Virus record (IMG/VR): IMGVR_UViG_3300044981_000350
Location: 1-64,000 of that record
Reading direction: 5' to 3' (one strand)
Source: a virus
Length of the DNA: 64,000 bases
Shown piece by piece: positions 2,192-52,971 of this stretch (its first letter is position 1; the number at the start of each line of letters is the position of its first letter). The notes below the pieces were generated by a model that saw nothing but the letters and a program-made list of their open reading frames with translations, was not told the DNA's origin and searched no databases. Position numbers and translations under genes: made by a program.

Positions 2192-2218
2192 AAAAACAAA
2201 AGCGGAAAGCGGAAACCA

Positions 2219-3754: not shown

Positions 3755-3773
3755 ACCGTACGAATGAAATAAA

Positions 3774-32328: not shown

Positions 32329-33639
32329 GTGGTGGTGACGCCCCATTGGCCGTCGTATCAAGGCACGGCCCGACGGGGCCTCGGGCTCGACGTGGGATCG
32401 CTCACGACGGTCGCCAGCAGCGCGGGCGCTGCGGCCAACGCCGGAGACGTCTTCAACCCGGATGATCCAACGCAGGATCTACCGGGGCAGGCTACGGCTC
32501 AGTTCAACTCGTTGGTGAATTCGGCCCAGCCCGCGGTAGCTCTACAGCAACAGCTTCAAAGCGCGATCGGCTCCGCCACCGGCCAAGCCCAAGCGGCTTT
32601 CCAAGGGTATGCGGGCGAGATCCAGGCCATCGAGAGCTACCCCGGGGCGGCGGAGGCGGCCGAAGGGATGATCACGGCCGCCGGTGGTGGTGTGCCGACG
32701 GACGCTCAGCTCCAAGGGGCCTTCACCGTCGCGGCAACCGCCGGTGCCGTGGCCCTCGGTGCGACCGCGACGGCCGCGGCGACTATCGTGGCGCCCCTCT
32801 GCGCGGTCGTATGGGGAGCCGGGTACGCGATTGGGGCCCTCGTCCAAAACATCCTCGGGATCACGAGCGGTAGCCCTGCACCATGCTCCGGCGGCGACAC
32901 CGCGGTGTACGGAACATCTCCCGGAGATCCGAACTGGCAAACGTACATGGGGTTATCGGGCCCAGAGCTCGGCGCACCGTGGGGCCCCTACGCACCCCAG
33001 CAAGCAGCGAACATCCAAACGTTGAAGAGCCTCGCCGGTAACCCGACGTACGGCGCCCCTGCGAACTGGCCCTATTGGACCCCGTACACGCGAGGGGCCT
33101 TCGAGAACTGGGCCGGCGGGATCATCATCCACGCCGAAGAGCTTTGGATGAATTGCAAGAAGGTGCCGCCGGACAACACGGCGACCACGCTCTTGAAGGG
33201 TCTCGTAGGGGCGTGGAACGCGCAGTACCCCAATGCGCCGAAGCGTCAGATCAACATCGCCGGCCTGGGGCCGACACCATTGGATGGCCAGATCAAGACG
33301 CTGAGCAACACGTCGTTTCCAACAAGTTTTCGGCCCCCGCTCTATTGGCAATGGATGGCATGGCAGGGCGATCCCATTCAGTACCTCTTGACCCAGGTCT
33401 CGAATGAGCAAGGGGGGAATATCGCGATCACCGTCGCCGACCCACCCCTGACGCCCCCCGCGGCCTCGGCCCCTACTACTTCCGCGGGTACCGCCGTCGC
33501 CAACGTCGCGGCCGGTACCGCCGTCGTCGGCGGGGCGGCACTCACCGGGACCGCAGTGTATGCTTTTGCCAAGGGTCAAGCCGTCAGCACCGTCCTCAAG
33601 TCGGGCTTGCTCGCGATCAAGGGATGGTTCATTCGATGA
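32329..33639 (+). CDS. Putative virion membrane protein (GLG leader, C-terminal hydrophobic anchor)
   Basis: RRGLG at aa 15-19; internal and C-terminal hydrophobic helices. Confidence 0.65.
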   Translation: MVVTPHWPSYQGTARRGLGLDVGSLTTVASSAGAAANAGDVFNPDDPTQDLPGQATAQFNSLVNSAQPAVALQQQLQSAIGSATGQAQAAFQGYAGEIQAIESYPGAAEAAEGMITAAGGGVPTDAQLQGAFTVAATAGAVALGATATAAATIVAPLCAVVWGAGYAIGALVQNILGITSGSPAPCSGGDTAVYGTSPGDPNWQTYMGLSGPELGAPWGPYAPQQAANIQTLKSLAGNPTYGAPANWPYWTPYTRGAFENWAGGIIIHAEELWMNCKKVPPDNTATTLLKGLVGAWNAQYPNAPKRQINIAGLGPTPLDGQIKTLSNTSFPTSFRPPLYWQWMAWQGDPIQYLLTQVSNEQGGNIAITVADPPLTPPAASAPTTSAGTAVANVAAGTAVVGGAALTGTAVYAFAKGQAVSTVLKSGLLAIKGWFIR

Positions 33640-34079
33640 AACGCCGCCGCAGAGCTCGCGCGAACCCGACGGGGGCCCAATGGCTCCTCATCTCGGGTGC
33701 AATCGGCGCCGTCGGTGTGCTGGGCTACCTCGTCTACAAGGCGAACGCCCCCGCTGCATCGCTCCCCTCCGGTGCCGGCTCGACCTACAACGTTCAGCTC
33801 TCTTCGGGTTCTCTCCCGACCATCACGATGTCGCTCTCGAAGGGCGACCAGATGAGCCTCACGCCCCCCGCGGGCGGTACCCTCCCCACCGTGACCTTCA
33901 GCCCCACGAACATCGTCGGCCCCAACCCCAACGGGGCCTACCTTGCCTACTCACCGATCGCGGTCGGTAGTACGACGTGCACGGTCAACTACACCGACAC
34001 GACCGATACAACCAGCACGACGAGCACCGCCACCGGCAACACCGAAACCGCAACCTTCACCGTGAACGTGACAGCTTGA
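33636..34079 (+). CDS. NP-leader membrane protein with small beta ectodomain
   Basis: MKRRRRARANP then TM (WLLISGAIGAVGVLGYLVY). Confidence 0.75.
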   Translation: MKRRRRARANPTGAQWLLISGAIGAVGVLGYLVYKANAPAASLPSGAGSTYNVQLSSGSLPTITMSLSKGDQMSLTPPAGGTLPTVTFSPTNIVGPNPNGAYLAYSPIAVGSTTCTVNYTDTTDTTSTTSTATGNTETATFTVNVTA

Positions 34080-34279
34080 TGGCTCGGCGTCGCGCGCGGG
34101 CGAACCCCGGAGTGGATGTGTGGCTCGCGCTTGGCGCAGGCGTCGCCTTGCTCGGTGCCGGCATCTACTTCTTCACCAGACCGGCAGCCACCACAAGCAC
34201 TACCGGCACCGGCGCACTTCCCCCAAGCACCCACCGCGCGGCCATCCCGATGGTCTACACCGCCCGCCTCACTTCCTGA
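34079..34279 (+). CDS. NP-leader membrane protein
   Basis: MARRRARANP then TM; TGATG overlap. Confidence 0.7.
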   Translation: MARRRARANPGVDVWLALGAGVALLGAGIYFFTRPAATTSTTGTGALPPSTHRAAIPMVYTARLTS

Positions 34280-34291
34280 TCGGAAACCCCC

Positions 34292-34738
34292 ATGGCCCGT
34301 CGACGCAAGCGCACCCGTAAGACTGAAGTTCGAGAGAACGGCCCCGAGCTCCTCTGGATTCTCGCTGGGTTGGGCGTTCTCGGCGCTGGCACCGTGGTCT
34401 ACCTCGCAACGCGGCCCCCGGCGACGACGACTCCCTCGTCGGCCGCGGTGCAGGCGGCGACGCAAGCGCGCCTCAACGCGATCGAGTCGAACATCGCTGA
34501 TCTGGCCAATGAAGGAATCCCGGCGCCGGTGAGTGATACGATCCCGAACAACGTCGCCACGGCTCTTTCGAACGGTGGCGGTAGTACGGGCCCCGTGAAC
34601 ACCGGGAACGCCGACGTCGACAACGCTGCGAACAGCGCGATCAATAACGCTACGGGCCAAGCTACCGACGCGGTGAATAACGCGACGAGCAGCGCCGGCA
34701 ACGCGGTGAACAGCGCGGCCTCTCAGCTCGGATTCTGA
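34292..34738 (+). CDS. NP-variant leader membrane protein
   Basis: MARRRKRTRKTEVRENGP then TM; N/A/T-rich tail. Confidence 0.7.
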   Translation: MARRRKRTRKTEVRENGPELLWILAGLGVLGAGTVVYLATRPPATTTPSSAAVQAATQARLNAIESNIADLANEGIPAPVSDTIPNNVATALSNGGGSTGPVNTGNADVDNAANSAINNATGQATDAVNNATSSAGNAVNSAASQLGF

Positions 34739-34747
34739 TCTTTTCCG

Positions 34748-35359
34748 ATGGCGCGCGCTCGTGAAAACCCCATTGAGCTGGCCGTGTGGCTCATCGCTGC
34801 CCTCGCGGCCGCAGCGACAGGTACGGTTGTCTACGTAGCTGCGAAGAAGAGCGCATCGAACGCCGCGGCCACTGCGGCGACAACGGCCGCGAACAATGCG
34901 GTGCTCATCGGCCCCGCCATCACGAACCCCGAGGCCGGCGGCGCGGGAAACTCTGTCGCCGAAGCGGCCAACGCCGCCTTTGTGGCCGATCAGCAAGCCG
35001 CCGCCGCGGCCGCCGCCGCCAACGCCGCCCACCTCGCGACGTTGACCGACACGACCTACCAGCTTTCATTGAGCGGGCAGGCCCCCTCAGCGACCGCCAG
35101 CTTTCTCCTCAAGGTCGGCGACACGATCCAGATCACGCCGAGTATGGCCGGGGACCCGCCCGTGGCTCGGGTGTGGACCTACAGCCCCGTGAGCTCTAGC
35201 AGCATCATCCAAGAGTTGGGCTCGGCCGATGGGGTGAGCGCCACCTTCAAAGCGACCGCCCCGGGCTCGGGGGTTCTCCTCGTGCAGAACGTCATGGCTG
35301 GCAACCAGAATGTCGTCTACATGACCTACACCGTCAACGTCGAGGTCATCGCAACGTAG
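34748..35359 (+). CDS. NP-leader membrane protein with Ig-like C-terminal domain
   Basis: MARARENP then TM; LKVGDTI...FKATAPGSG...YTVNVEV. Confidence 0.75.
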   Translation: MARARENPIELAVWLIAALAAAATGTVVYVAAKKSASNAAATAATTAANNAVLIGPAITNPEAGGAGNSVAEAANAAFVADQQAAAAAAAANAAHLATLTDTTYQLSLSGQAPSATASFLLKVGDTIQITPSMAGDPPVARVWTYSPVSSSSIIQELGSADGVSATFKATAPGSGVLLVQNVMAGNQNVVYMTYTVNVEVIAT

Positions 35360-35435
35360 GGGCGAACATAGGGTATTGGAGGCATGGGCGGGGGCAGCCT
35401 TAGCCAATTCTGCCCCGCCGCAGTAAACTCCCTCT

Positions 35436-35705
35436 ATGGACGTCAAGTCGGGCGCTCTGGTCGGTTTCGTGACGGCCCTCGGGGGTGTCGCCGGCCTCGT
35501 GTTCGGATACACGGCTGCGTCGCTGGTCGACGCCAAGAAGCCCGGTGAGGTCGCGGTAGGGTTCGGGGTGATCGGCGGCCTGGTGGCCTCCTTCGCGGCC
35601 GGCACCATCATCGCACCGGACGCAACTACGACGACCAGCACGACCACAACGACCCCCACCCCGGCGGTGGGCTCTTCCGGGATTCCGGCGCAACTCAGCC
35701 GATAA
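35436..35705 (+). CDS. Small two-TM protein with Thr-rich tail
   Basis: Two Gly-rich hydrophobic helices. Confidence 0.6.
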   Translation: MDVKSGALVGFVTALGGVAGLVFGYTAASLVDAKKPGEVAVGFGVIGGLVASFAAGTIIAPDATTTTSTTTTTPTPAVGSSGIPAQLSR

Positions 35706-35716
35706 AGGGCCCGGCC

Positions 35717-36931
35717 GTGGCCGACTTCAACCCCGCACTTCCCGCGACGGCGACCCGGCGGCCCTACCCCGATGGGGCCCCGGGCATTCGCATGTCCCTT
35801 GAGGCCATGGCGCAGAAGATGCGCGAGGGTCGGTTGGACCCCGGCGTGCGGGGATGGGCGATTCAGGCGTTGAAGGATGCGGGGATCGACGGGCGTGGAA
35901 ACACGACGGTGCGCGCGCAGGCTTCGGCGCTCTTGGATGCATTGCGGGCGGTCACGACATACGCACCAGATCCCTACGGGGCCGAGTATATCCCTAGCGC
36001 CGCCGCCACGTTGTGCCTCAAGCCAAACCTCTGCGTCAACGGCGAAGACTGCGACGGGTTGAGCGTTGCACTCGGAAGCCTGATGCTGTCGATTGGGATC
36101 CCGACCCAGATCGTCAAGCAGACCTTCGGGGGCGGCGCCCAAGAGCACGTCCTCATCGCGATCTACGACGGGACCGATTGGCTTTACGCTGATCCGTCGA
36201 CGCGGTTGCCGCTCGGGGGCGCCGTGAGTGCAGCGCGCGAAGATTGGATCGATCCGATGGGTGCGGTGGGCCCTCTGCCGGAGGCGCAACCCGAGATCAT
36301 CACCCTCGGAAAACCGCGCGGCCTCGGGAGCGTTCTCGGGTACCCGACGACTTCCGACGCGCACCAACTCCTCGACACGGCGATCTACAACGCCGGCCAG
36401 CTGAAGACCGCGTGGGATAACTGCAACAGCTGCACAGGCGCTTCGTCGACCACGTGCGGATGGCCTGACCCGGGTACGACTAACATTTCCGCAACCGGCC
36501 CCGGCGCCGATGCGTGGGCTGCGTGGCAAGCCGACTGCGGCAGTATGATCAACGACCTCAATACGCTCGTCGCGCAATGGAACGCGCAGAGCGCGACGGC
36601 TGCGCACTGGATGGATTCGTGGAGCTACGACCCGCTTTTTTGGGATCAGATCCGCGGTATCATCGAGCGTCAGATCGATCTCGATCAGCGCTTCCGAAAC
36701 AGCGGCACTAACTGCGCGCTCCCGACTTACCCGAATGAGCCGCAGCCGATCGCTACGAACGACCCCGACCAGTGGGTTTACCAGGATGCGAACAGCGCGA
36801 TCAAAGGGGTCGAGAGCGTTGCGGCCAATGCGGTGAAGCCGGTGTCGATCGCGATCGGCGGCATCGCAGTCGGCTTGATGCTCGCCGCCGGCGGTTACTT
36901 CCTTCTTGATCGACTCATCCCCCGGCGATGA
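35717..36931 (+). CDS. Transglutaminase-like cysteine enzyme (candidate maturation protease), C-terminal TM
   Basis: EDCDG...SLMLSIGIP (Cys), EHVL (His), WLYADPS (Asp); RGLG after the catalytic domain. Confidence 0.8.
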   Translation: MADFNPALPATATRRPYPDGAPGIRMSLEAMAQKMREGRLDPGVRGWAIQALKDAGIDGRGNTTVRAQASALLDALRAVTTYAPDPYGAEYIPSAAATLCLKPNLCVNGEDCDGLSVALGSLMLSIGIPTQIVKQTFGGGAQEHVLIAIYDGTDWLYADPSTRLPLGGAVSAAREDWIDPMGAVGPLPEAQPEIITLGKPRGLGSVLGYPTTSDAHQLLDTAIYNAGQLKTAWDNCNSCTGASSTTCGWPDPGTTNISATGPGADAWAAWQADCGSMINDLNTLVAQWNAQSATAAHWMDSWSYDPLFWDQIRGIIERQIDLDQRFRNSGTNCALPTYPNEPQPIATNDPDQWVYQDANSAIKGVESVAANAVKPVSIAIGGIAVGLMLAAGGYFLLDRLIPRR

Positions 36932-37581
36932 CCATGGGCTTGGTCGCTCCCGGTTCCTCCACGGCGTCGACCATCGCCCAATATTTTTTCTGGGGCGTCG
37001 TCGCCGCGGGGCTCGGCACCATCGGCTACTACATCTTCGCGCCGATCCCTCACGAGCGGGATAACCCTCGGCTCGGATCCGGCGGCCCGCGCGGTGGCTC
37101 GAAGAAACGCAAGCTGCCGATCGTGAAGGGCCGGAGCTGTCGGTTTGAAATGAAGGAAGGCCCCGATGTCACGTGCGCGGGGGCGATGCTCCACGACCCA
37201 ACGGGCAAGGCATGGCCGGCGCGTTCCGTTTTGTGCGGGCCCATTCGGCGCAAACTTCGGAAGGCATCCGATGCGGAGCTCGAGGGGGCGGGCCGCCACT
37301 ACTTCGGCGGGAGTTATCCCGCGCGCGTCGTTGAAATCGATGCGCCCAACCGCAGCATGGAAGGTTGGCGGTACCTCGGCGAGGTTGAGCGGATCTACTA
37401 CACGCGCGTGGGTCGAAAAAACGGCAATGTGCGGTTCCAACATCCCTTCAACAAACCGAGCGCGCTCGCGACGGTGATGAAGGGCCGGGGCAGGGTGCGG
37501 CTATACCGTAAGGGCCGCTTCGTTCGGTTGGAGCTCCCGCGGGGTAGCATTCTTGACAGTAGAGGCTATGTTTGGCCCTGA
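36928..37581 (+). CDS. Putative virion protein: N-terminal TM, DNP motif, basic domain
   Basis: FFWGVVAAGLGTIGYYIF, HERDNP, LGEVERIYY...FQHPF. Confidence 0.65.
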   Translation: MTMGLVAPGSSTASTIAQYFFWGVVAAGLGTIGYYIFAPIPHERDNPRLGSGGPRGGSKKRKLPIVKGRSCRFEMKEGPDVTCAGAMLHDPTGKAWPARSVLCGPIRRKLRKASDAELEGAGRHYFGGSYPARVVEIDAPNRSMEGWRYLGEVERIYYTRVGRKNGNVRFQHPFNKPSALATVMKGRGRVRLYRKGRFVRLELPRGSILDSRGYVWP

Positions 37582-37814
37582 TGACAAATAATCGGTCTCT
37601 CATCGTGGAATACAAAGGCGGCCTTGATGTGAGCATCGACCGGGCGGTGGAGAAGGGCGCCCGAAAAGAACGGGACGGCTCGGGGTTTTCGTTCCTCGAT
37701 GGAACTCGGGATCTCTCGTTCTCATTCACGCAGGGCCGTTTCGCCGAGGCTGCGAAGGCTCGAATCAAAGCCATGCTTGGGCGAAAGGTCACCACCCGCA
37801 TTGTCTCTCACTGA
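37581..37814 (+). CDS. Small hypothetical protein
   Basis: TGATG overlap; GSGFSFLDGTRDLSF. Confidence 0.5.
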   Translation: MTNNRSLIVEYKGGLDVSIDRAVEKGARKERDGSGFSFLDGTRDLSFSFTQGRFAEAAKARIKAMLGRKVTTRIVSH

Positions 37815-37858
37815 AGCTGCCGAGCGCGCCCTTGCCAAATTTGATAGGCTGATGGAGC

Positions 37859-39361
37859 GTGGGCGATTACCTCGACAAGCTTGGCGCAAATCGGGCCGAC
37901 GGACTAGAGCACGCCGCAACCGCCAAGTCGCACCGTAAGCTGCGCCGCAAGGGTACCTCCTTGACGACCACCCCGAAGCGCGCGAAACTCAGAGTCAAGC
38001 GAGTCGCTACGAAACCACCCGGGAAGGAAACGAGGGGCACCACCAAAAAGACTCCGTCGGAGAAAGCGAAGATGGCCAAGAAGAGCAAGCGCTCGAAGAA
38101 GCGTCGTTCGGCAGCGCAGCAAGCCGCGACGCGGAAGATGCTTCGCGCCGCCAAGGCAAAGCGAGCCGGGAAAAGCCGCCGCGGCTCTTCGAAGCGAAAG
38201 GCCCGTAAGAGCGGCAAGCGCAAGAGCGCGAAGCGAGTCGCCGCGGGCAAAAAGGCCGCGCGGACCCGCAAGCGCCGCGCGTCCGTTGGAGCCTCCGAGC
38301 CGACGCGCAGCAAGCGGAAGAGCGGCAAACGTAGGGCCCGAAAGGTTCGTGCGGCTCACTCGATCAAGCTTCCCCGCGGCAAGCGCGGTGCAAAAAAGCG
38401 CGTCGGCGTCCACGTAAAAGTGGGCAAGAAACGCCGCTCGCGTGGATTCTCAGTTCCGCGGAAGACGAAGCGCGTCTACGTGATCGCAGCCGAGAAGAGC
38501 CGCCGACGTCGGAAGCGCAAGGCAAAGGCCAACCCGGCCAAGCGCCGCCGTCACTCGAGCGGTCGACGCAAGGGCGCGATGGAAAACCCGATGGACGGGG
38601 TGGAGCTCTTCATCGGAGCCATCACCGGCCTCGCGGGCTTCCTGACCGCCGACGTGCTCGACCGTTTCCTCGCGACTCACCCCCTAACGGTCTCTACGGC
38701 CGCCTCCGGGTCGACCGCAGCGACGTATACCGATACGCCCCCGACGTCGGGCGACTACCAAGGCCTCTTCAATGCGACCGCGATCTGCGCCCCGATGGAC
38801 GCAACGCGGTGGCTCGCCGGCCTCGGTGTCGCAACCGTTCCGCTCGTCATCGCGCACTTCATCTCGGCCCCCAAGGGCCGAGCGGCGCTCCAGTTCTTCG
38901 GCTACGCGGCCGGGATCCGGGTCGTCGGCAAGGGCGTGATCGACATGATCGCGCAGCTCACGCAGCCGACGCAGCTCGGCCAGCAGCTGTACGACGGTGA
39001 GATGCGCGCCGCGGCCCTCAAGGCCGGCAACGGCACGATCGCCTCTGGCGTGAACCTCCCGAGCTCCGGCTTGGGTCGTGCCCGCCTCGGCACGGGCAAG
39101 CCCTGCGCCCCTTGCGCCACGAAGAAGATGGGCGCCGGTTACCCCAGCGCTCCCCGCGAAGTGACCGCGGTGACGAACAACAGCACCCCGACCACGCAGA
39201 ACCAGCCCACGTCGACCCCGACGAATACGGCCCCCACGGCCTCGGCCCCGGCGGCCACCCCGCCGGCGCCTCCCGCGGCCGCGAACACCCTCACGGGCGC
39301 GCGCTTCATCAACGGGCTTCCTCGACGAAACCCGAATTGGGGTTATCAAGGAGACGAGTAA
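37859..39361 (+). CDS. Protamine/histone-H1-like basic protein fused to a membrane domain (candidate core protein)
   Basis: About 240 aa dominated by K/R/S/A, then KANP...AMENP, hydrophobic helices and SSGLG; start uncertain. Confidence 0.75.
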   Translation: MGDYLDKLGANRADGLEHAATAKSHRKLRRKGTSLTTTPKRAKLRVKRVATKPPGKETRGTTKKTPSEKAKMAKKSKRSKKRRSAAQQAATRKMLRAAKAKRAGKSRRGSSKRKARKSGKRKSAKRVAAGKKAARTRKRRASVGASEPTRSKRKSGKRRARKVRAAHSIKLPRGKRGAKKRVGVHVKVGKKRRSRGFSVPRKTKRVYVIAAEKSRRRRKRKAKANPAKRRRHSSGRRKGAMENPMDGVELFIGAITGLAGFLTADVLDRFLATHPLTVSTAASGSTAATYTDTPPTSGDYQGLFNATAICAPMDATRWLAGLGVATVPLVIAHFISAPKGRAALQFFGYAAGIRVVGKGVIDMIAQLTQPTQLGQQLYDGEMRAAALKAGNGTIASGVNLPSSGLGRARLGTGKPCAPCATKKMGAGYPSAPREVTAVTNNSTPTTQNQPTSTPTNTAPTASAPAATPPAPPAAANTLTGARFINGLPRRNPNWGYQGDE

Positions 39362-39466
39362 CAGACGACGAGTGGCGGCGTTTTCCCGGGGAACGGAAAA
39401 CAGAGTGTCTTTGACCGTTGGGTGGCGCCTTTGGGGCACCCGACAACACCAGGTTGGAGACAGATC

Positions 39467-40798
39467 ATGGCCTATCAATCGCGAATCGTGAATCAGCCGA
39501 AGAGCAAGACGCTCGTTCGGCCCCGTCCCGCAGACCGCTACGTCGTGGGCGCCTCCGGCGTTCCCAATGAGGCGAAGATCAAGGCAGGCCTCGGCTCGGC
39601 CGGTCTCGGCTCGATCCTCGACATCATGAAGGCGTCTAGCGAGACGCCGGTGTGGAGCATGGACGTCATCGAGCAGGTCCGCTGGACGATGACCGGCCCG
39701 CAGACCGACGCGTCGGTTCAAGCGAACTTCGGCGCGGAGATCGACCTCTTCGGCTCCGGCAAGTCGCCGCAAGGCATTGACTTCGTCGAGACGACGATGG
39801 CGCAGACGGGCCAGACGCAGACGCACTTCGTCGCCTGCTACATCGGCTTCCACATGGAGCCGGAACCCCTCTGCTTTACGGCGCGCGGCAACGCGTCGAC
39901 GCACCCCACGAGCGCGGTGGCTCAGCCCCCGTCCCCGGACGTCTTCACGCAGAACGACCGCGCCAACGGCGCCCTCGGCACGGCCGTCGCGGCCGGCACC
40001 CAGACGTTCCTCCCGGCGGTCTACCGCCACGGCTGGTGGGCGAACTACGTTTGCTGGCACATGGCCCGCGCGTACAACCTCCGGTGGAAAATCGGCCAGC
40101 ACGTCAACATCATGGACGAGCAGTTGCGCCACACGGCGTACATGCCGCCCAGCGCGCAAGAGGGCTCGGCCTCCAACTCGCAGGTCGATGTGACCACGTT
40201 CGTCGCGAACCTCAACCAGCGCTACGACTCGCTCGGGTCCGCGCTCGACTTCATCCCGTCGAACTTCATCCGCATCGGTAGCGACGCGGTCGGCGGCGTG
40301 AACGTCGGTTTCTTCATGCCCTCGCGTGACTTCGAGATCGTCGATGCCACCTACGGCGGCATGGACCTCCGGAGCATGCTCAAGGGCAACAGCGAGATGC
40401 GGAAGCTCTGCGTCCCGTACGTCATCGCCCCGGGCGTGCCCATCGGCCTCTTCCTCCAGGAGTGCGACACAGTTCAGGGCGACACGATGCGCCAGTTCCT
40501 CTCCATCACGCAAGGCCTCGGCGGCGCAATCCCGCCCTCTCTGACGCCGGACGAGAACTACATCGCGGAGCCGACCGCCACGGGCACCAACGTCATGTTG
40601 GAGCGCACGCTGAGCGGCACGAACGTCGCGCAGCAAGTCGACGCCGAGCGCGTCGTCTTCCAGGGCGGCGATCTGAAGCTCACGCTTCCGATCCGCGGCT
40701 TCGAAGTGAGCGCCGACTGGTACAACCAGCTCTCTTCGTCCGCCGACATCCGCGCCGCGGTCTTCGACTGCGTCGGGATGCGCTTCGCGGCTCAGTGA
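39467..40798 (+). CDS. Candidate major capsid protein (fold unknown)
   Basis: GGAGA RBS; strongly C/G-ending codons; soluble 443 aa; central in the virion module; AGLGSAGLG leader. Confidence 0.55.
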   Translation: MAYQSRIVNQPKSKTLVRPRPADRYVVGASGVPNEAKIKAGLGSAGLGSILDIMKASSETPVWSMDVIEQVRWTMTGPQTDASVQANFGAEIDLFGSGKSPQGIDFVETTMAQTGQTQTHFVACYIGFHMEPEPLCFTARGNASTHPTSAVAQPPSPDVFTQNDRANGALGTAVAAGTQTFLPAVYRHGWWANYVCWHMARAYNLRWKIGQHVNIMDEQLRHTAYMPPSAQEGSASNSQVDVTTFVANLNQRYDSLGSALDFIPSNFIRIGSDAVGGVNVGFFMPSRDFEIVDATYGGMDLRSMLKGNSEMRKLCVPYVIAPGVPIGLFLQECDTVQGDTMRQFLSITQGLGGAIPPSLTPDENYIAEPTATGTNVMLERTLSGTNVAQQVDAERVVFQGGDLKLTLPIRGFEVSADWYNQLSSSADIRAAVFDCVGMRFAAQ

Positions 40799-40832
40799 CA
40801 ACGGGGGTAGCTCCCCATAAGGAGACCCTCCG

Positions 40833-41588
40833 ATGAGCAATATCGTCGCATTCAGCGAGGAGCAGTTCAAAGCGCTCATCGCTCAGATCCGAACCCCCCA
40901 TAGCAGCGGGTTGGGCGCGCCTCCGGGCAAGCCCTCTCGAGCCTTGGGGTTCGGATGCGGCGACAGCGACTTCGGCCCGCTCGCCACCGGCATCTACTCG
41001 ATGCTGGCGGCGGGCTCGCCGCGTCTCGCTCTCGCCAAGGCGCGCGGCGTTCCGCTCGCCCCCTACATCATCAACGTGCGGGCGATCTTCCCGGACACGT
41101 CCACCACGTTGGTCCCCGACGTCGGCAGCGACGTGAAAATTACGCAGGATACGCTCATCGACTCGCTCATCATCCGGATCCAAAACGAGTCGGACACGGC
41201 GAACCAGAACCAGTTTCAGTCGCTCTCTGACTTCTTCTACGGGTACCAGAGTGCGATCGAAGCGACCCTCGATGTGCAGGGCGCGCCTCGCTATACGGTC
41301 ACCGGCGATAAGTTCGTTCCCCTCAGCGTGCTGGGCGATCCGAACAACGGCGTCGGGCACTGGCCCGGCGGGTGGGTGCTCACGTATCAGCAACAGCTCT
41401 TCATGAGCTTCCAGGCGAAGGTGCTCCTTCCCTACGCGCCGATCGAAGTGATCTGCTCGTTCCGCGGTTGGGTGCCGGTCACCCAAGCTTTCGTCAGCAT
41501 GACGAACCGCGAGGCGATCACGCTCCTTCAATCGGAGTTCGGCATTCAACTGGACGATTCGTACATCAATCGAGTCGTTGCCCTCTGA
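40833..41588 (+). CDS. Candidate second capsid/penton protein
   Basis: TAAGGAG RBS; beta-rich; SSGLG at aa 24-28. Confidence 0.5.
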   Translation: MSNIVAFSEEQFKALIAQIRTPHSSGLGAPPGKPSRALGFGCGDSDFGPLATGIYSMLAAGSPRLALAKARGVPLAPYIINVRAIFPDTSTTLVPDVGSDVKITQDTLIDSLIIRIQNESDTANQNQFQSLSDFFYGYQSAIEATLDVQGAPRYTVTGDKFVPLSVLGDPNNGVGHWPGGWVLTYQQQLFMSFQAKVLLPYAPIEVICSFRGWVPVTQAFVSMTNREAITLLQSEFGIQLDDSYINRVVAL

Positions 41589-41600
41589 CCCTAAGCCCCG

Positions 41601-42410
41601 ATGGGTCGCATCGTCGAAATTGCTTCGAGTGGGCTCGATGAATACCTCCAAGGCGTCGGCGGCGACCCTTGGGGGGGTTCATCTGCGCTCGGCTTGCGCG
41701 TTCCCTTTCTTGCGACGCCCGACAAGAACAACCGCTACCTCTTTCTCCTCGCGAGCTTCACGATCGGCGAGGGCGCGTCGGTAGTTATCAAGGGCTACCG
41801 ACAATACGCATCCCTCGGGATCGCGCTCAGCGCAACGCGGTTCATCGAGCAAGAAATCACGAGCCCTGCGTTTCGACTCCCCGACGGGAACATCAGCTGG
41901 GCGATCCGAGGGTTGGGCCCGCCGAACGCCGGCGGCTACCCAAAGCAGGGCCCTACCCCCGACGATCTGCGTTCGTTCAAGAAGAACTGGGCCGACGGCA
42001 GCTGCCTTCTCTATAACGACTACACGATCGCGGCGGGCAACCAGATTTACACGCAGCTCGAGTCCTACGTGGCGCCGAACCTCGGTCGACCGTGGGGCAC
42101 CGCGCTCCCCGCCGGGCAGCAAGGCAACTTCACCGACCTACGCACGCCGTGGAAATCGAGCCGCGCGTGGGCGAGCCTCGATGTTCACGTCGATGGACCC
42201 ACCACCATCGCGTTTTTCGCCAGCGTGCGGCAAAGCGCCGGCACCTACGCGGCGGCCGCCCCATCGGCGAGCTTCTCCGGGATGAACACCCCCGAGGAAG
42301 CTTTCATGGCGAACTTCACGACGGGCGGCGATGCGCCCACGAAGCCAATCTACTGGCGCGTCGGGGGAAGTCTCATCGTGGAAGTGCAGAAAGGATTCAC
42401 GGGTCCATGA
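41601..42410 (+). CDS. Putative virion structural protein
   Basis: Soluble beta-rich ORF following the capsid candidates. Confidence 0.55.
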   Translation: MGRIVEIASSGLDEYLQGVGGDPWGGSSALGLRVPFLATPDKNNRYLFLLASFTIGEGASVVIKGYRQYASLGIALSATRFIEQEITSPAFRLPDGNISWAIRGLGPPNAGGYPKQGPTPDDLRSFKKNWADGSCLLYNDYTIAAGNQIYTQLESYVAPNLGRPWGTALPAGQQGNFTDLRTPWKSSRAWASLDVHVDGPTTIAFFASVRQSAGTYAAAAPSASFSGMNTPEEAFMANFTTGGDAPTKPIYWRVGGSLIVEVQKGFTGP

Positions 42411-42784
42411 AACGCCGCAAACGTCGTTCCTCAGAGACGATCGTCGTCTACCAGAAGAACCCGAAAATCTCCCCGTGGGTGTGGGTCCTCGGCGGGGCGG
42501 CTCTTCTCGGCGGCGGGTACCTCACCTACTGCTATTTCAAGACGCACTTCACGGTCGCGGCGAGCATGGCCTACGGGGTGCCGGCCGGCGCAGCGATTAC
42601 CCTCACTGCCCCCGCGGGCGCCACATGGACCGGGCTCACGGCCAGCGATGGGAGTCAAGTGCAAGTCGCGGTCGGGCAGACGACCCCCCTCACGTTTACC
42701 GCGAGCGCCACGACGGGCGTGACGTATACCGTCGCGTGGACCCTCAACAACGTGCCGGCGACGGCCACCATCACCACGCAGTAA
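42407..42784 (+). CDS. NP-leader membrane protein with small beta domain
   Basis: MKRRKRRSSETIVVYQKNP then TM; LTAPAGATWTGLT. Confidence 0.75.
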   Translation: MKRRKRRSSETIVVYQKNPKISPWVWVLGGAALLGGGYLTYCYFKTHFTVAASMAYGVPAGAAITLTAPAGATWTGLTASDGSQVQVAVGQTTPLTFTASATTGVTYTVAWTLNNVPATATITTQ

Positions 42785-42788
42785 ACCC

Positions 42789-43190
42789 ATGGCTCGTCGA
42801 AACCCAGACCTGTCCACCCTCTGGTGGGCCCTCAGCGCCGCATCCCTCGCAGGCACCGTCGGCTACTACGTCGGCAAGGGCGTCAACCCGCTCAACCCGG
42901 CGTCGAACGTCACAACGAATATCGCCCTGACGAATGGCGGTTCCCTCACGGCGCCGGCCGGCGGTACCTGGATCCTGACCCTCCCGAGCGGCGCGACGTG
43001 GACGAACCTGACGGACACGAACAACGACATCACCTCGCCGCCCACGGGTACCGGCCCCGCTACGATTACCACCCCGGTTTCGGGTGTGACCTACACTGCA
43101 ACGTGGAGCACGACCCCCACGACAGTGACCACCGGTCGAAACAATCGAAACAACCAGAATACGCAGACCGCCACGATCACGGCGCAATAA
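42789..43190 (+). CDS. NP-leader membrane protein, paralogue of its neighbours
   Basis: MARRNP then TM; LTLPSGATWTNLT. Confidence 0.75.
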   Translation: MARRNPDLSTLWWALSAASLAGTVGYYVGKGVNPLNPASNVTTNIALTNGGSLTAPAGGTWILTLPSGATWTNLTDTNNDITSPPTGTGPATITTPVSGVTYTATWSTTPTTVTTGRNNRNNQNTQTATITAQ

Positions 43191-43199
43191 GGGAATCCC

Positions 43200-43592
43200 A
43201 TGGCTCGACGAAAATCCCTTGCCCGCCGATCCCGATCGAGGGAAAACCCCGGCATCCCCCTCTGGATCTGGCTCGCCGGCGGGGCCCTCGCGGCGGGCGG
43301 CGTCGGCTACCTCATCTACACGAACACCGTGAACAGCCCGGCGCCGGCCCCGGGAGCTACGGCGGCCCCCGGGACGTCGAACATCACATTGGGTACGACC
43401 CCCGTCACCGTCCCCGGAGGCTTCGTTACCGTGAGTCTACCCGTCAACGCCACGTGGGTTTCCCTCACCGGCGGCGGGGCCACGGCGGGATCTTCTGACC
43501 AGGTGACTATCAACCTCCCCAGCGGAAGCACCGCGACGGCCGTTTGGAACAACGGAACGGCCCAACAGACCACCACCATTACCGCTTCGTAG
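43200..43592 (+). CDS. NP-leader membrane protein, paralogue of its neighbours
   Basis: MARRKSLARRSRSRENP then TM; VSLPVNATWVSLT. Confidence 0.75.
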   Translation: MARRKSLARRSRSRENPGIPLWIWLAGGALAAGGVGYLIYTNTVNSPAPAPGATAAPGTSNITLGTTPVTVPGGFVTVSLPVNATWVSLTGGGATAGSSDQVTINLPSGSTATAVWNNGTAQQTTTITAS

Positions 43593-43629
43593 CCCCGCGT
43601 AGTATCATAGTCCTAGGAGATCAACCCCC

Positions 43630-43842
43630 ATGCGCCGTCGTGCTCGTCGAAACCCCACCCTTCCCACCTGGGCCCTCGTCCTCGGGGGAGCCGCCGTCGT
43701 CGGCGCCGTGGGTTACGCCATCTACACCAAGCAGCAAGCCACGACGCAGATCGCTGGCGCTGCCAACGCACTCGCCCCCGCGTCCACCACGACCACGTCG
43801 TCTACGACCACGACGACGCCGGCCGCCACTTCGTCGTCGTAA
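43630..43842 (+). CDS. NP-leader membrane protein with Thr-rich tail
   Basis: AGGAGA RBS; MRRRARRNP then TM. Confidence 0.75.
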   Translation: MRRRARRNPTLPTWALVLGGAAVVGAVGYAIYTKQQATTQIAGAANALAPASTTTTSSTTTTTPAATSSS

Positions 43843-43851
43843 ACCCCGCCG

Positions 43852-44394
43852 ATGGGAATGTGGGATCAGGCGAGCGATTGCGAGACCTGCGGCGGCGGCC
43901 TCCGCGCCTGGGGCCATCTCGCGCCGCCCAATCCTACTGTTTCCCTAGATGAGGTGAGTCCGATGGATGTTGGAAATCGATGGGGCATTTTGACGGGTGC
44001 CGGGGCCGCACCGGATCGGCTCCGGCGCGTGCCGCGGGTCTTCGCGGGGCTCGGTGACGACAGCTCCGACGATAACCCGCCCGTCGACACCGACACTACG
44101 AGCGGGAGCATCGACAGCAGCGACAACTCCGACGCTGCGGTCAACCCGACGATTTCACCGGTCACCGCCAACCCCGGCGAGACCATCTCCGCCAGCCCGA
44201 CGCCGACTGCGGTTTCAAACGCGAATGGCGGCGGCTCGACATCAAGCGGCGGTGGCGGTTCCCCGAGTGTCTCCTCAAGTACCCCCGCGAGCACGAACTA
44301 CACCCCGTGGATCATCGGGGGCGCGGTCGTCGGCGGGGCCGGCCTCCTCGGGTTCGCGCTCTGGCGGCGGCACCACAAGCTGCATCGGCGATGA
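43852..44394 (+). CDS. GLG-leader protein, S/T/D-rich, C-terminal TM and basic tail
   Basis: FAGLGDD; [29 protein letters not shown]. Confidence 0.7.
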   Translation: MGMWDQASDCETCGGGLRAWGHLAPPNPTVSLDEVSPMDVGNRWGILTGAGAAPDRLRRVPRVFAGLGDDSSDDNPPVDTDTTSGSIDSSDNSDAAVNPTISPVTANPGETISASPTPTAVSNANGGGSTSSGGGGSPSVSSSTPASTNYTPWIIGGAVVGGAGLLGFALWRRHHKLHRR

Positions 44395-44819
44395 AGCTCC
44401 TCGGCGCCGGTAATCGTGGCGCCGGGCTTGGGGATGCCTCGATCCTTCCGGCGGATCCACTCACCCAAGCGACTGCGGATCTTGTGGCGTGGCTCGTGGC
44501 GAGTCCGTGCACGCAAAACGCCGTCACGCAGGTAAGCGATTTCCAAACGGCGTGGAACACTTCGACGCTCGGCGGAACGCTCACCGTCGACGGTAAATAC
44601 GGGCCCCAAACACGCGGCGCGCTCCAAGCGGCGATGAACGCGGCGGGGACGGGGAGCGCCCCCGCAGATTGCTTCACGTCCGCGAGTGCGGTGTGCCCTC
44701 AGGCTGCGGCCGCTGCGTCATTCGCACCCTGGATCATCGGCACCGCCGTGGTCGCTGGCGCTGGTGTTATTGCGTACACTTATTGGCAGCTCCACCACGC
44801 TCGCGGCGGCCGCCGCTGA
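44391..44819 (+). CDS. GLG-leader peptidoglycan-binding-domain protein with C-terminal TM
   Basis: GAGLGD; VSDFQTAWN...[15 protein letters not shown] (PG_binding_1 pattern); [13 protein letters not shown]. Confidence 0.75.
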
Positions 44820-44829
44820 GGATCCCCCG

Positions 44830-45507
44830 ATGCCCATTCCCTACACCCAACCGGGTTACTCGTACAGCCCCGTCGCAGCCGTTTCGCTCGGCCAAGTGGG
44901 GGCTACGGGATCGCACGGGGCGAGCGGGCCGACAGGCCCCGCGGGGGCCACTGGAGCCACCGGACCGACGGGCACTACCGGCGGAGCGGGAGCGACGGGA
45001 GCTACCGGGAGCGGAGCTACGGGAGCCACTGGAGCCGCCGGCGCGACAGGCCCCGGTGGTGGAGCCACGGGAGCTACCGGCGCAGGTGGTGCGGCCGGCG
45101 CTACGGGCGCCACCGGAGCGGCCAATACCGGCCATCATGCCTACAGCCAAAACGCGTCGGCGGTGAGTGCCTCTACGACGCCGACGTTCACGAGCGGGTC
45201 CTACACCTCGACTTCGGGGACGATCCTCATCATCGCTACCATGACGGCTACGGGGCTTGGCGCGACGTTGGCGGCAAACGACGCCGTTGTCTTCAACCTC
45301 CTCCAAGACGGATCGATCATCGGAACTTCCCCGAGCATGAGCGTTGGCGCTGCGGGCCCCGGCCCGGTCGACGCGTCGGGCGCCCTCTCGATGATCCTCG
45401 CCGCCTCCGGAGCCCACACCTACGCGATCCAAGCGACGGTTTTGACCGGGAGCCACACCGCCACCGTTCAAATCGGCCAGGCCGCCATTTCCATCACCGA
45501 CCTCTGA
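44830..45507 (+). CDS. Short collagen-like fibre protein
   Basis: MPIPYTQPG leader, GXT run, beta-rich C-terminal domain. Confidence 0.75.
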
Positions 45508-45531
45508 TTTTTTCCCTCCGAGAGAACCGCC

Positions 45532-46137
45532 ATGCCCATTCCCTACACTCAGCCCGGTATTGATTACAGCGTCGCCGCGGTGGTCGCCGTAGGCGGCGGT
45601 GGAATGACCCGCGGTGCCACGGGCGCCACGGGGCCTTCCGGCACCATCGGGGCCACGGGCGCCACCGGAGCCGGAATCATCGGTGCGACAGGCGCCACCG
45701 GACCTACCGGCGTCGGCGCTACCGGCGCTACGGGAGCCAACGGCTCCGGCATCGTTTCGACCACCACCACCGCTTCGGATGTCGTTCTAACGACGAGCCC
45801 CGCGGCTATCGTCACGAGCTCCGCGGTGTCGGTCACGAGCGGCCAAAAGGTGTTGGTCCTATTCTCGGCCAACGTCGCCAACACCGGCGAGGTGGTCACG
45901 AGCGGGGAAACACTCGTGAGTTTCGCGGCGCAGTTCGATACCACGACCGTTGACTCTTTCCAACAGTTGTTGGTGAACGCCACCGACAACGGAAATGCGA
46001 CCGTGAGCTGGTCCTACGAGGTCACGGGCCTTTCGACGGGAAGCCACACGTTCCGGGCGCTCGGGTCGGTCGACGCCACTACGTGCACGCCCGAGGTCAT
46101 CGCGGCTCGCATCACCACTGTTCTTCTTCCGGGCTAA
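45532..46137 (+). CDS. Short collagen-like fibre protein
   Basis: Same MPIPYTQPG leader, GXT run, beta-rich C-terminal domain. Confidence 0.75.
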   Translation: MPIPYTQPGIDYSVAAVVAVGGGGMTRGATGATGPSGTIGATGATGAGIIGATGATGPTGVGATGATGANGSGIVSTTTTASDVVLTTSPAAIVTSSAVSVTSGQKVLVLFSANVANTGEVVTSGETLVSFAAQFDTTTVDSFQQLLVNATDNGNATVSWSYEVTGLSTGSHTFRALGSVDATTCTPEVIAARITTVLLPG

Positions 46138-46140
46138 CCT

Positions 46141-46785
46141 ATGAGCGTCGGCCAGATCCTCAACCGCGGCTCACGGGTTGCCGTTCAACCGGGGATCCCC
46201 GCTGGCGCTACAGGCCCGAGCGGAGCCACGGGGCCGACCGGCGCCACGGGAAGCACGGGGCCCACTGGCTCCCCCGGAGCTACGGGTGCTACCGGGGCCA
46301 CGGGTGTCGGAGCCACGGGCGCTACGGGGCCGGGTGGCGCGGGCACCGCCGGGGCTACCGGGGCTACCGGGGCCACGGGAGCTACGGGAACGGGAACAGC
46401 CGGCGCGACTGGCGCCACCGGACCGACCAGCGCCGGGGGGCCGGCCGTAGTCACCGCCTCTACACCAGAGGACACCAACCCCCACACGTTGACGACGCGC
46501 GCCATCACCTCCAATACGGAGCTCGTGGTCGAGGTTGTTTTTCTCGCGCGTGACCCCACCGACGGCAATGACGAGGGCGGCCGTATCGCCGGTACCTTCA
46601 AGAATACGGCGGGGACCGCAGTGCAAGAGGGGACGACGACGAAGGTGTGGCAGCAGGCGAACGCCGGGGGCGTCGTTTGCACCTTCGGCGTGACCGGCGG
46701 GAGCTACGAGATCATCGGGACCGGCAACGGTGATGGCACCACCGACTGGACTCTCTACATCTACGAGTACCCAAGCGAACTCTAA
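46141..46785 (+). CDS. Short collagen-like fibre protein
   Basis: GXT run followed by a beta-rich domain. Confidence 0.75.
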
Positions 46786-51682: not shown

Positions 51683-52609
51683 ATGATCTATCGAACCGCC
51701 GCCCACGAGGCGATTGCCAACACCTTCAAGGGGCGCTTCCACGGGTACATCCCCGACGATGCCTCGGGCCGATACCAGAAGCCCGCTTCGCTCCTTTTGA
51801 AGGCGTCGGGGGCGGTCGCGCAAGCGAGCCTCGTCGGCTGCGAAGCCCAGATCCTCAATCAGGGGCAGACCGGTTCTTGCGGGGGTCATGGCACCGCCCA
51901 AGCGGTCTACACCGCGCTCAACGCCGCCGGGTTCTCCCTCCTCACGGTGCCGTCGCCGCGGATCCTTTACGCGCTCGCCCGCATCATGCAGCGCACGAAC
52001 GCAAGCCAGGGCCTCGCCGACAGTGGCGTGATGCCGTCGGACCTCCTCACGGTGCTTCGGCAGTACGGCATCAAACCGATGGCCCCGACGGTGACGCCCG
52101 ACGGTCGGTACTCGGACGTGTGGGGCCCGGGGGATCTCACTGGGCTGCCCCTTGCGCAACCCAACGTCAACACCGAGCCGGATTTGCTCGACCTCGAGAC
52201 GAGCGGCCTCAAACTGCTCACTGGTGAATACCGCATCGATGAAACGGATCCTACGCTGCCCCAACAGATCCTCGCGTCGGTCAATGCGAAGGCCCCGGGT
52301 GGGGTCGGCATCTTCGTCGACTCGGCATTCATGCAGTGGGATCCATCGACAGGCCCGATCAAAAGCATCAACCTCGCCGACCCCCAAGGCGGCGGCCATT
52401 GGCTCGCTCTGACCTACGGCTATACGACCCCGGCGGGTACTATCGTGCTGGGGGGCCCCAATTCGTGGGGGGCCGAATGGCCGGTCACGGCCGGATCAGG
52501 CGTTCCGGGTTCGCCCTATTGGAAGCCGGGCCATTGGGAGGTCGAAGCGCCAGGGCTTCAGAAAGCCCTATCCGATTGTCTCCTCTTCCCCGTCAAGGTG
52601 CTCTCATGA
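51683..52609 (+). CDS. Papain-like (C1) cysteine protease
   Basis: NQGQTGSCGGH, GGGHWLAL, PNSWG. Confidence 0.85.
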   Translation: MIYRTAAHEAIANTFKGRFHGYIPDDASGRYQKPASLLLKASGAVAQASLVGCEAQILNQGQTGSCGGHGTAQAVYTALNAAGFSLLTVPSPRILYALARIMQRTNASQGLADSGVMPSDLLTVLRQYGIKPMAPTVTPDGRYSDVWGPGDLTGLPLAQPNVNTEPDLLDLETSGLKLLTGEYRIDETDPTLPQQILASVNAKAPGGVGIFVDSAFMQWDPSTGPIKSINLADPQGGGHWLALTYGYTTPAGTIVLGGPNSWGAEWPVTAGSGVPGSPYWKPGHWEVEAPGLQKALSDCLLFPVKVLS

Positions 52610-52971
52610 AAGTAAACCCCTATTTTACTTTCGTGCTGGCCCTCTTCGCGGCCGCGTGCCATTCGACGCCCCCCGTCGTTGTGGCCCCCGCAGTCGACGC
52701 CGCCTCGGTTCTCCCTCCGCCCGAAGCCCTCGGCGACACCGGGGCCCCGACGGCATTAGCCGATTGCGAAGCGGCCTGCCTTGAGATCGATAAGGTCGGT
52801 TGCATCACCGAGACCGACTGCGCCGCGGTGCTCTGCGCGGCGAACAACGACCCGCGGTTCACCCACTACGACGTCAGTTGCCTCATTCACGCGATGCTTC
52901 CGAGCGACATCGCAGTCTGCGGCGTCGACTGCACTTTGAAGACTCCGAGCTCGTTGGCGCATCCGCTATGA
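52606..52971 (+). CDS. Cys-rich lipoprotein
   Basis: LALFAAAC lipobox; eight further Cys. Confidence 0.7.
   Translation: MKVNPYFTFVLALFAAACHSTPPVVVAPAVDAASVLPPPEALGDTGAPTALADCEAACLEIDKVGCITETDCAAVLCAANNDPRFTHYDVSCLIHAMLPSDIAVCGVDCTLKTPSSLAHPL

Follow-up and report, generated by a model that had tools for sequence, protein, structure and literature searches.

By the positive-inside rule, the tail of a membrane protein is retained in the cytoplasm by its positive charge, and helices commonly start with the pair Asn-Pro, as in the aquaporin NPA motif. Type IV pilins carry a short basic leader, a hydrophobic helix and a small beta-rich domain and occur in tandem arrays, while the h-regions of Tat signals are only moderately hydrophobic and Gly-rich. 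Adenovirus pVII and pX/Mu and the membrane-bound polyproteins of African swine fever virus (ASFV) are precursors that are cut at maturation, the sites being M/I/L-X-G-X-G and G-G-X. A Pro after the scissile bond blocks most proteases; going by the title of a paper by Ye et al. (2000), an Asn-Pro sequence is said to trigger site-2 protease cleavage of SREBP. Self-cleaving Asn-Pro sites are described for reovirus mu1 and aquareovirus VP5 (Asn42-Pro43), for FlhB/YscU (N|PTH) and for RsgI, where, as far as excerpts of the sources go, a nearby Asp or Glu drives the reaction (PMC10328401, PMC3207474). Here we describe an Asn-Pro pair (NP) that stands between a cationic N-terminal tail and a membrane helix in eight small genes and one large gene of an uncultured soil virus, within the first 64,000 nucleotides (hereafter the window) of the 73,439-base linear IMG/VR record IMGVR_UViG_3300044981_000350, which is complete according to CheckV.

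This Asn-Pro mark is real, conserved and undescribed: a full-text search of the literature, outside which lie supplements and most subscription journals, returned no description of the joint motif, of its sharing with a protamine-like membrane protein or of the virus family. At a rough probability of 45%, we read its carriers as sharing one N-in anchor module in which Asn-Pro is an uncut joint or docking point.

Results

Eight small anchors and a large basic protein of one layout

A sequence-only reading of the window had proposed a family of proteins with an Arg-rich leader, Asn-Pro and a transmembrane helix. Its eight small open reading frames (ORFs) are present at the starts it gave, all on the plus strand and with the N-termini it quoted, and together with the large basic protein they make up the following set, in which each gene is named below by its first position.

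33636..34079, plus strand: small anchor 1, 147 residues, N-terminus MKRRRRARANP; MKRRRRARA-NP-TGAQ-W...Y helix, then an Ig-like beta-sandwich ectodomain
34079..34279, plus strand: small anchor 2, 66 residues, N-terminus MARRRARANP; MARRRARA-NP-GVDV-W...Y, then a short Thr-rich tail
34292..34738, plus strand: small anchor 3, 148 residues, N-terminus MARRRKRTRKTEVRENGP; Asn-Gly-Pro (NGP) variant with an Asn/Ala-rich tail
34748..35359, plus strand: small anchor 4, 203 residues, N-terminus MARARENP; MARARE-NP-IELAV-W...Y, then an Ala-rich linker and a beta-sandwich
42407..42784, plus strand: small anchor 5, 125 residues, N-terminus MKRRKRRSSETIVVYQKNP; MKRRKRRSSETIVVYQK-NP-KISP-W...Y, then a beta-sandwich
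42789..43190, plus strand: small anchor 6, 133 residues, N-terminus MARRNP; MARR-NP-DLSTL-W...Y, then a beta-sandwich
43200..43592, plus strand: small anchor 7, 130 residues, N-terminus MARRKSLARRSRSRENP; MARRKSLARRSRSRE-NP-GIPL-W...Y, then a beta-sandwich
43630..43842, plus strand: small anchor 8, 70 residues, N-terminus MRRRARRNP; MRRRARR-NP-TLPT-W...Y, then a Thr/Ser-rich tail
37859..39361, plus strand: large basic protein, 500 residues; K/R-rich N-terminal stretch of about 240 residues, KANP, A-M-E-N-P joint, membrane domain and C-terminal RRNPNWG

The eight small proteins share a basic tail, Asn-Pro (Asn-Gly-Pro in 34292) and a Gly-rich helix, in a register tighter than had been stated: the first Trp follows Asn by 6 residues in 6/8 and by 7 in 2/8, and the Tyr that ends the helix follows Trp by 15 residues in 6/8 and by 14 in 2/8. 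In the NGP variant the Asn-to-Trp distance is unchanged and the Pro is displaced. The net charge of the leader is positive in all eight, ranging from +1 (MARARE) to +6, and the hydrophobic, uncharged stretch of 16-20 residues is immediately followed by a basic residue; the residue at -1 to Asn reads, from 33636 to 43630, A, A, E, E, K, R, E and R. The large protein has the same layout, as the sequence-only reading had it, with KANP (Asn 225) and AMENP (Asn 243), 18 residues apart in G000, and a hydrophobic helix next; Asn 243 is encoded at 38585-38587, and its joint lies at a domain boundary.

The motif is above chance

Within the record, NP with at least three K/R in the preceding eight residues occurs nine times in 87 called genes, against 1.9 +/- 1.4 in residue shuffles (maximum 8, n = 1000), and the reversed dipeptide PN occurs once in the same setting. 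A family sample was formed from 35 non-redundant related loci of IMG/VR and metagenomes (designated by L numbers), with a capsid-candidate identity of about 40-77% where most of that gene is present. N-terminal anchors were picked by a codon-score filter, which misses some true ones (the minus-strand anchors of L003 and L004, and 42789 in some lists), and NP was counted at up to 15 residues before the helix. Across the 36 family records, NP was found in 10/15 leaders with at least five Arg, in 5/36 with three or four, in 4/107 with one or two and in 6/116 with none; the PN control gave 0, 0, 2 and 4 over the same classes, and the near-duplicates L040 and L041 are counted twice among the rows that lack NP. 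Put differently, 15/51 Arg-rich leaders (at least three Arg) carry NP, against 10/223 of the others.

That the motif might be equally common in host membrane proteins had been named beforehand as a finding that would speak against it. This is not so in a bacterial control, a 365 kb Polyangiaceae metagenome-assembled genome (MAG) passed through the same pipeline, where NP occurs in 3/243 leaders overall and in 1/86 with at least three Arg (Fisher p about 1e-6 for 15/51 against 1/86, a value that overstates independence because the sequences are related). A degenerate-DNA scan of IMG/VR for Met-Arg4...Asn-Pro against ...Pro-Asn returned at least 120 and at least 110 stretches, respectively; among the matches listed, those in frame and open for 50 residues numbered 14/49 for Asn-Pro and 11/29 for Pro-Asn, with a helix next in 0 of either. 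It is the three other tests, within the record, across the family and against the bacterial control, that place the NP motif above chance.

A signal at the level of DNA was considered as the cause, given the AAC CCN codon pair and an AAACCC-like string upstream of several starts. RAAACCC occurs 32 times in place of the 18.3 +/- 4.3 expected; the explanation was rejected because this excess is mild and stems in part from the NP codons themselves, and because the codons before AAC vary.

Conservation of the joint

Homologues keep the pair, although the sequence-only reading had allowed that they might not. Among the orthologues of 33636 (n = 8, down to 52% identity), NPTGAQWLLI is invariant and NP is present in 8/8 while the length of the Arg run varies, and among those of 34748 (n = 7, down to 48% identity to the query) A-R-E-N-P is present in 7/7, the shortest leader being MARENP. 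The same reading had also given the Arg arm a role in DNA binding; an essential arm of this kind sits badly with 34748 orthologues that keep A-R-E-N-P on so short a leader. NP-bearing look-alikes of 34079 occur in L003, L004 and L031, and the look-alike of 34292 in L020 has EENP.

For the large protein, the membrane domain of 37859 was searched against 1.84 billion representatives, which yielded 229 relatives at E<=0.001. The best 150, representatives of 50%-identity clusters, were examined; a DRxxATH landmark is present in 106 of them and enough upstream sequence in 98. The joint reads N-P in 95/98 and N-A in the other three, so that Asn is present in 98/98, and the spacing from Asn to DRxxATH is 25 residues in 90/95. 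The consensus is (Y/G)-A-M-E-N-P-(L/M)-(S/T/G)-G-x-E-(L/I), with Glu at -1 in 81/95 and at +6 in 85/95. At the level of whole records, the NP joint of the large protein was found in at least 21/23, L020 and L034 being the two in doubt. An internal translation start at the Met of A-M-E-N-P was rejected as a general explanation: the gene calls of 14 relatives begin there, but the long fused ORF is present in L010 and L031, and the Met position is Leu, Arg, Ala, Tyr or His in 30/95.

Outside the joint, the basic arm of the large protein (37859-38575 here) varies greatly among relatives, being Lys-rich or Arg/His-rich and placing the joint of the first helix anywhere from about residue 110 to about residue 430. 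In the relatives P0193, P0248 and P0254 the leader is only 17-24 residues long and the NP joint is still present, P0248 and P0254 having ARENP and AYENP in tandem. At the C-terminus (39310-39361) another motif, [KR]-N-[PR]-[FY]-x-W-G, is conserved ahead of a short acidic tail; the sequence here is RRNPNWGYQGDE, relatives have KRNRFNWG or RNPYKWG, and NP lies within the last 30 residues in 49/150. This second motif looks like a docking peptide.

Anchors that lack the pair, and one duplicated module

Small Gly-rich N-terminal anchors of the same layout but lacking NP were found in L006, L010, L011, L012, L024, L026, L029, L030 and L036. They often stand in tandem (six in L006), behind short leaders that are Lys-rich (MKKTTKR, MKQSTKDA) or Arg/Ser-rich. 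NP is therefore dispensable for placing a small anchor in the membrane, and the proposal of the sequence-only reading that it is a membrane-targeting signal does not hold, at least nine related viruses having anchors of the inserting layout without it; helix and positive charge thus appear to be enough for insertion, and NP appears not to be an address. All nine records whose small anchors are NP-less retain the NP of the large protein (9/9), which argues that the loss from small anchors is not genome-wide, unlike what would be expected had a single reader of the motif disappeared.

By blastp among the eight, five ectodomains prove homologous (E 2e-12 to 8e-6), which points to duplication as the origin of the small-anchor family. 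The earlier statement that the downstream domains differ consequently fails for 33636, 34748, 42407, 42789 and 43200, whose beta-sandwiches are homologous; it stands for 34292, which is distinct, and for 34079 and 43630, which have short low-complexity tails. In the AlphaFold2 model of 33636, the beta-sandwich has a predicted local distance difference test score (pLDDT) of 82-92 and helix 11-37 one of <50. Its ectodomain is Ig-like or chagasin-like, the best match being a chagasin-family inhibitor (Z 8.3, root-mean-square deviation 4.1, 86 residues aligned); an Atlas comparison returned Ig-like structural look-alikes only (TM-scores 0.42-0.51) and no usable feature match. In PHROGs, neither 33636 nor 34748 matched any family, and 42407 had a single weak match, to a family whose function is unknown.

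The second cluster counts four genes here and a single one in either L005 or L024, and it is missing from L003 and L004. When 17 NP anchors were aligned with 82 large-protein joints by hhalign, the two sets fell in register over 23 columns (probability 60%, P 8e-5; reversed control 1.1%), and in L034 a hybrid anchor has KDNPLSGAE followed by a Gly-rich helix of the small-anchor kind. Taken together, ectodomain homology, cluster counts, profile alignment and hybrid suggest that cationic arm, NP and Gly-rich helix form one duplicated module joined to different bodies, and that the carriers are largely one paralogous module, not a tag on unrelated proteins.

Such a history invites the explanation that these are ordinary positive-inside signal anchors and that NP is a functionless passenger, handed down from the ancestor of a recently duplicated family. 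The paralogy of the eight genes, the lineage-specific expansion of the second cluster and the many relatives with same-layout small anchors free of NP would all suit it. We nevertheless hold it to be improbable, because NP persists beside changing flanks in orthologues of as little as 48-52% identity, persists at the large-protein joint in 95 of the 98 cluster representatives, and there even in lineages whose small anchors are NP-less, and because its frequency climbs with the Arg content of the leader (10/15 at five or more, against 10/223).

Comparison with export signals

The leaders might also be known export signals in an unusual guise (Tat, lipoprotein, prepilin/class III or cleavable Sec), given a layout like that of type IV pilins and helices that are Gly-rich and moderately hydrophobic like Tat h-regions. 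As had been maintained from the outset, they fit none of the consensus patterns: regular expressions for Tat (the strict S/T-R-R-x-F-L-K or a looser version), for the lipobox [LVI][ASTVI][GAS]C and for the prepilin pattern G|F...E5 each matched 0/8. A prepilin peptidase would have to cut after Pro or Asn in place of Gly, and the ORFs scanned yielded no such enzyme. A basic residue directly follows the hydrophobic stretch of 16-20 residues, and conservation is highest in the N-terminal segment (in 33636 orthologues, invariant positions number 26 among the first 37 and 22 among the other 110), which argues against a disposable, cleavable Sec signal peptide. We regard this explanation as very improbable; it and the passenger both fit the data poorly.

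Uncut joint or cut site

Under the reading that we prefer, that of an uncut anchor joint, the eight genes are tandem-duplicated paralogues encoding small single-pass membrane proteins, most likely with the N-terminus cytoplasmic and the C-terminus exported (type II signal anchors). Their module comprises a cationic tail of variable length, the joint A-x-(E/R/A)-N-P, about five linker residues and a Gly-rich helix bracketed by Trp and Tyr, and the first helix of the large protamine-like/membrane protein would open with the same module (A-M-E-N-P-L-x-G-x-E). Helix and positive charge would bring about insertion and orientation. Asn-Pro would stay uncut and form a fixed joint on the side of the viral membrane that bears the basic tails, where it would end the flexible cationic arm, begin the anchored segment at a set depth and probably offer a neighbouring protein or lipid head groups a common contact. 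Arms and protamine-like domain would share one side, able to hold DNA or anionic lipid.

We infer the topology, the location in the virion and the uncut bond. The preference for an uncut bond derives from the fixed register, in which Asn remains steady when Pro shifts; from a conservation that runs unbroken from the joint into the membrane domain (the Glu at +6 in 85/95, DRxxATH in 90/95); and from the modelled helix of 33636, which starts at Pro 11, right after Asn 10 (pLDDT <50).

Five observations weigh against it. Asn is never Ser, Thr or Asp in the 98 relatives, and a plain helix cap would usually tolerate these; the A, M and E upstream of Asn are conserved within a hypervariable basic region, which looks more like a site that is recognised; further Pro/Gly (KISP, GIPL and TLPT) in the linkers of 42407, 43200 and 43630 fit poorly with a plain start of a helix; NP is separated from the helix by charged residues in L008 and L009, so that it tracks the Arg run there; and extra NP pairs occur in the basic arm of 14/76 relatives, where a joint needs none.

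Some of these features would suit a scissile bond, broken by the Asn side chain or by a protease such as a host intramembrane site-2 protease or the Cys-enzyme candidate encoded at 35717, so that cutting would separate the membrane anchors from the Arg-rich leaders and the protamine-like domain at particle maturation.

35717-36931: membrane-anchored, transglutaminase-like Cys-enzyme candidate, between the anchor clusters (Pfam E 0.0065, below the curated cut-off)

Asn in 98/98 with Pro replaced by Ala in 3/98, and a conservation resembling P4-P4' of a cleavage site, (Y/G)-A-M-E-N / P-(L/M)-(S/T/G)-G, would be expected of a cut site, as would the three conserved residues before Asn in a hypervariable region, the position of the motif exactly at the boundary between low-complexity basic arm and membrane domain, and the one or more extra NP pairs that mark off short basic stretches in those 14/76 arms. 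The Glu at -1 (81/95) points the same way, and so do the precedents of Asn-Pro self-cleavage in reovirus mu1/aquareovirus VP5, FlhB/YscU and RsgI, as excerpted, and the presence of the candidate enzyme between the clusters; its catalytic-Cys stretch (CDG/CDD, then a small-residue helix) was seen again in at least 10 related records, and the protein has a C-terminal helix with the basic end DRLIPRR.

On the other side, leaders as short as MARENP and MARRNP offer little to remove; known Asn-lyase sites lie in folded domains, and the region here has a pLDDT of <50 in the 33636 model; the Pro that follows the bond is an obstacle for most proteases; the -1 residue is variable in small anchors; and at least nine related records have small anchors free of the motif. 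Among the carriers, Pfam was run on the large protein, where it matched 0 families and hence no asparagine-lyase family. We consider a scissile bond, the main rival of the uncut joint, possible but doubtful. Its full form is a little more doubtful still: a maturation seam at which, after assembly into the viral membrane, Asn-Pro would be broken by the Asn side chain with a flanking Glu, or by a membrane-bound or intramembrane protease, releasing Arg-rich peptides and the protamine-like domain of about 240 residues onto the packaged DNA.

As a side observation, the Ig-like domain of 33636 resembles chagasin-family inhibitors of papain-like proteases, and 35717 is a Cys-enzyme candidate; this could be coincidence or a regulator-enzyme pair.

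Genomic setting and further carriers

The record has a G+C content of 60-68%, and no tRNA genes were found in it. Pfam and PHROGs, run on its proteins, identified a family A DNA polymerase fused to a uracil-DNA glycosylase (an 868-residue ORF at 18296-20902 that also includes a 3'-5' exonuclease), VapE-like and UvrD-like helicases, an SNF2 helicase, a Sak4-like ATPase, an exonuclease, Dam and HNH enzymes, a RadC-like protein, a tyrosine integrase, a glycosyltransferase and several collagen-like fibre proteins. Among 50 ORFs scanned there was no terminase, portal, HK97-type capsid, tail or A32-type packaging ATPase. The block at 29-47 kb has hardly any family matches and is dense in membrane proteins; the particle module comprises at least 15 of these and a candidate capsid protein that sits between both anchor clusters.

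39467..40798, plus strand: capsid-protein candidate (jelly-roll model)

Among 8000 sequences scored, 215 are homologous to this candidate at E<=0.001; their contigs reach 82 kb, and none of the 215 has a name other than 'hypothetical protein'. No match was obtained in 50,697 deposited phage records. Its AlphaFold2 model is a beta-sandwich (mean pLDDT 75.6) that VIA-align relates to HHIV-2, HCIV-1, P23-77 VP17 and PRD1 P3 at Z 4.8-6.1, scores with which generic jelly rolls tie, while Foldseek against PDB and BFVD gave nothing at E<=0.001 and weak rows that are mostly jelly-roll capsid proteins. A jelly-roll fold class is likely for this model. Only two species-genome matches of the virus were obtained, both to short MAG contigs (Polyangiaceae and Chloroflexota).

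Besides the eight small anchors and the large protein, a tenth carrier was found outside the window.

Record 70273-70719, minus strand: tenth carrier; N-terminal domain, then KKRNRRRVRHNP and several Gly-rich helices

Its 45-residue N-terminal domain matches phrog_2423 (E 1e-14, unknown function), and tblastn against phage records gave two weak matches, over the first 33-34 residues only. It adjoins a glucosaminidase-like gene, and a small anchor of L003 has a similar N-terminal domain; the protein may be a lysis or entry protein. Two likely lipoproteins (52582-52650, and record 64043-64140 outside the window) have NP in a short leader (MKVNP..., MKNPTDTLAR...) and a helix that ends at a lipobox-like Cys (AAAC, LTAC).

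Three proteins of the particle block (43852-44394, 44307-44819 and 32329-33639) are anchored inversely, by a C-terminal Gly-rich helix followed by a basic tail. A sequence scan found no N-terminal helix or signal-like stretch in 43852 or 44307, and one stretch in 44307 is, we presume, typical of peptidoglycan-binding domains. Collagen-like (Gly-X-Y) fibre genes, at least six in number, are found at both record ends and after the anchor clusters (window 5-5609 and 44686-46785, record 71411-73439); the record is probably circularly permuted, in which case the fibre genes form one block.

A Shine-Dalgarno string is mostly absent in the particle block, where a C-rich AAACCC(CC)-like string lies 0-5 bases before many ATGs, often just after the preceding TAA stop (34280-34291, 42780-42788, 43190-43199, 43620-43629, 43842-43851 and other starts at 29-47 kb). 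Over the 87 genes, start signals are Shine-Dalgarno-like in 21/87 and AACCC-like in 8/87.

Discussion

The carriers come from a large soil family of uncultured viruses, about 60-82 kb in size, whose particle design is undescribed, and a five-residue motif with an invariant Asn, placed where cationic arms meet the membrane, gives a handle on how these particles tie together DNA, membrane and shell. Were it a cut site, it would represent a new maturation chemistry for bacterial viruses, an Asn-Pro-based core maturation, and a simple sequence rule for spotting particle-interior proteins in metagenomes; even as a structural joint alone it would be a well-defined, searchable anchor module for annotating these viruses.

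Among sorting signals, those of the LPXTG, PEP-CTERM, GlyGly-CTERM and MYXO-CTERM classes have a C-terminal order of motif, helix and basic cluster, with the motif outside, unlike the N-terminal order of basic tail, motif and helix described here, in which the motif would lie on the basic-tail side. Class III (prepilin) signal peptides share with the small anchors a short, basic, variable leader, a hydrophobic N-terminal helix, a small beta-rich domain and tandem arrays of paralogues, but the anchors have no Gly at -1, no Phe/Met at +1 and no conserved Glu at +5 (0/8). At the scale of the particle, PRD1-type tectiviruses and sphaerolipoviruses likewise encode many small single-pass membrane proteins around jelly-roll capsid genes, a resemblance matched here by the lack of portal, terminase and tail genes in the ORFs scanned; their genomes are of 10-20 kb against about 73 kb, and the present virus differs in having no recognisable packaging ATPase among those ORFs and a protamine-like domain fused to a membrane domain. 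The literature search returned no account of a comparable Asn-Pro motif in these phages.

Core precursors of adenoviruses and ASFV are comparable in that Arg/Lys-rich, DNA-condensing polypeptides are made as longer membrane- or capsid-bound precursors and a Cys protease is encoded by the virus; their sites are Gly-based, whereas the mark here is Asn-Pro and its cutting putative. SREBP, too, reportedly has a type II membrane topology, a basic stretch ahead of the helix, a large releasable cytoplasmic N-terminal domain and an Asn-Pro near or in the membrane segment; there, however, Asn-Pro is said to lie inside the helix, whereas here it precedes the hydrophobic core by about six residues, with neither a site-1 step nor an identified protease. 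The asparagine peptide lyases (reovirus mu1/aquareovirus VP5, FlhB/YscU, RsgI) present the same invariant Asn followed by Pro, often with a Glu nearby and in virion or membrane proteins, but no relation to the carriers in sequence or fold was seen, the sequence side covering the large protein in Pfam and 33636, 34748 and 42407 in PHROGs. Their known sites lie in folded domains, with the N-terminal piece freed on cutting, whereas the motif here falls in a region modelled as disordered, beside a membrane helix and on the basic-tail side.

Type II (N-in) signal anchors, finally, combine a cationic tail, one uncleaved helix and an exported C-terminal domain, and in them, as would be the case here, helix and charge suffice. 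Generic anchors of this class have no motif of this kind; those of this virus would be set apart by an A-x-E-N-P joint at a fixed distance before the helix and by an anchor that is more conserved than the ectodomain it carries.

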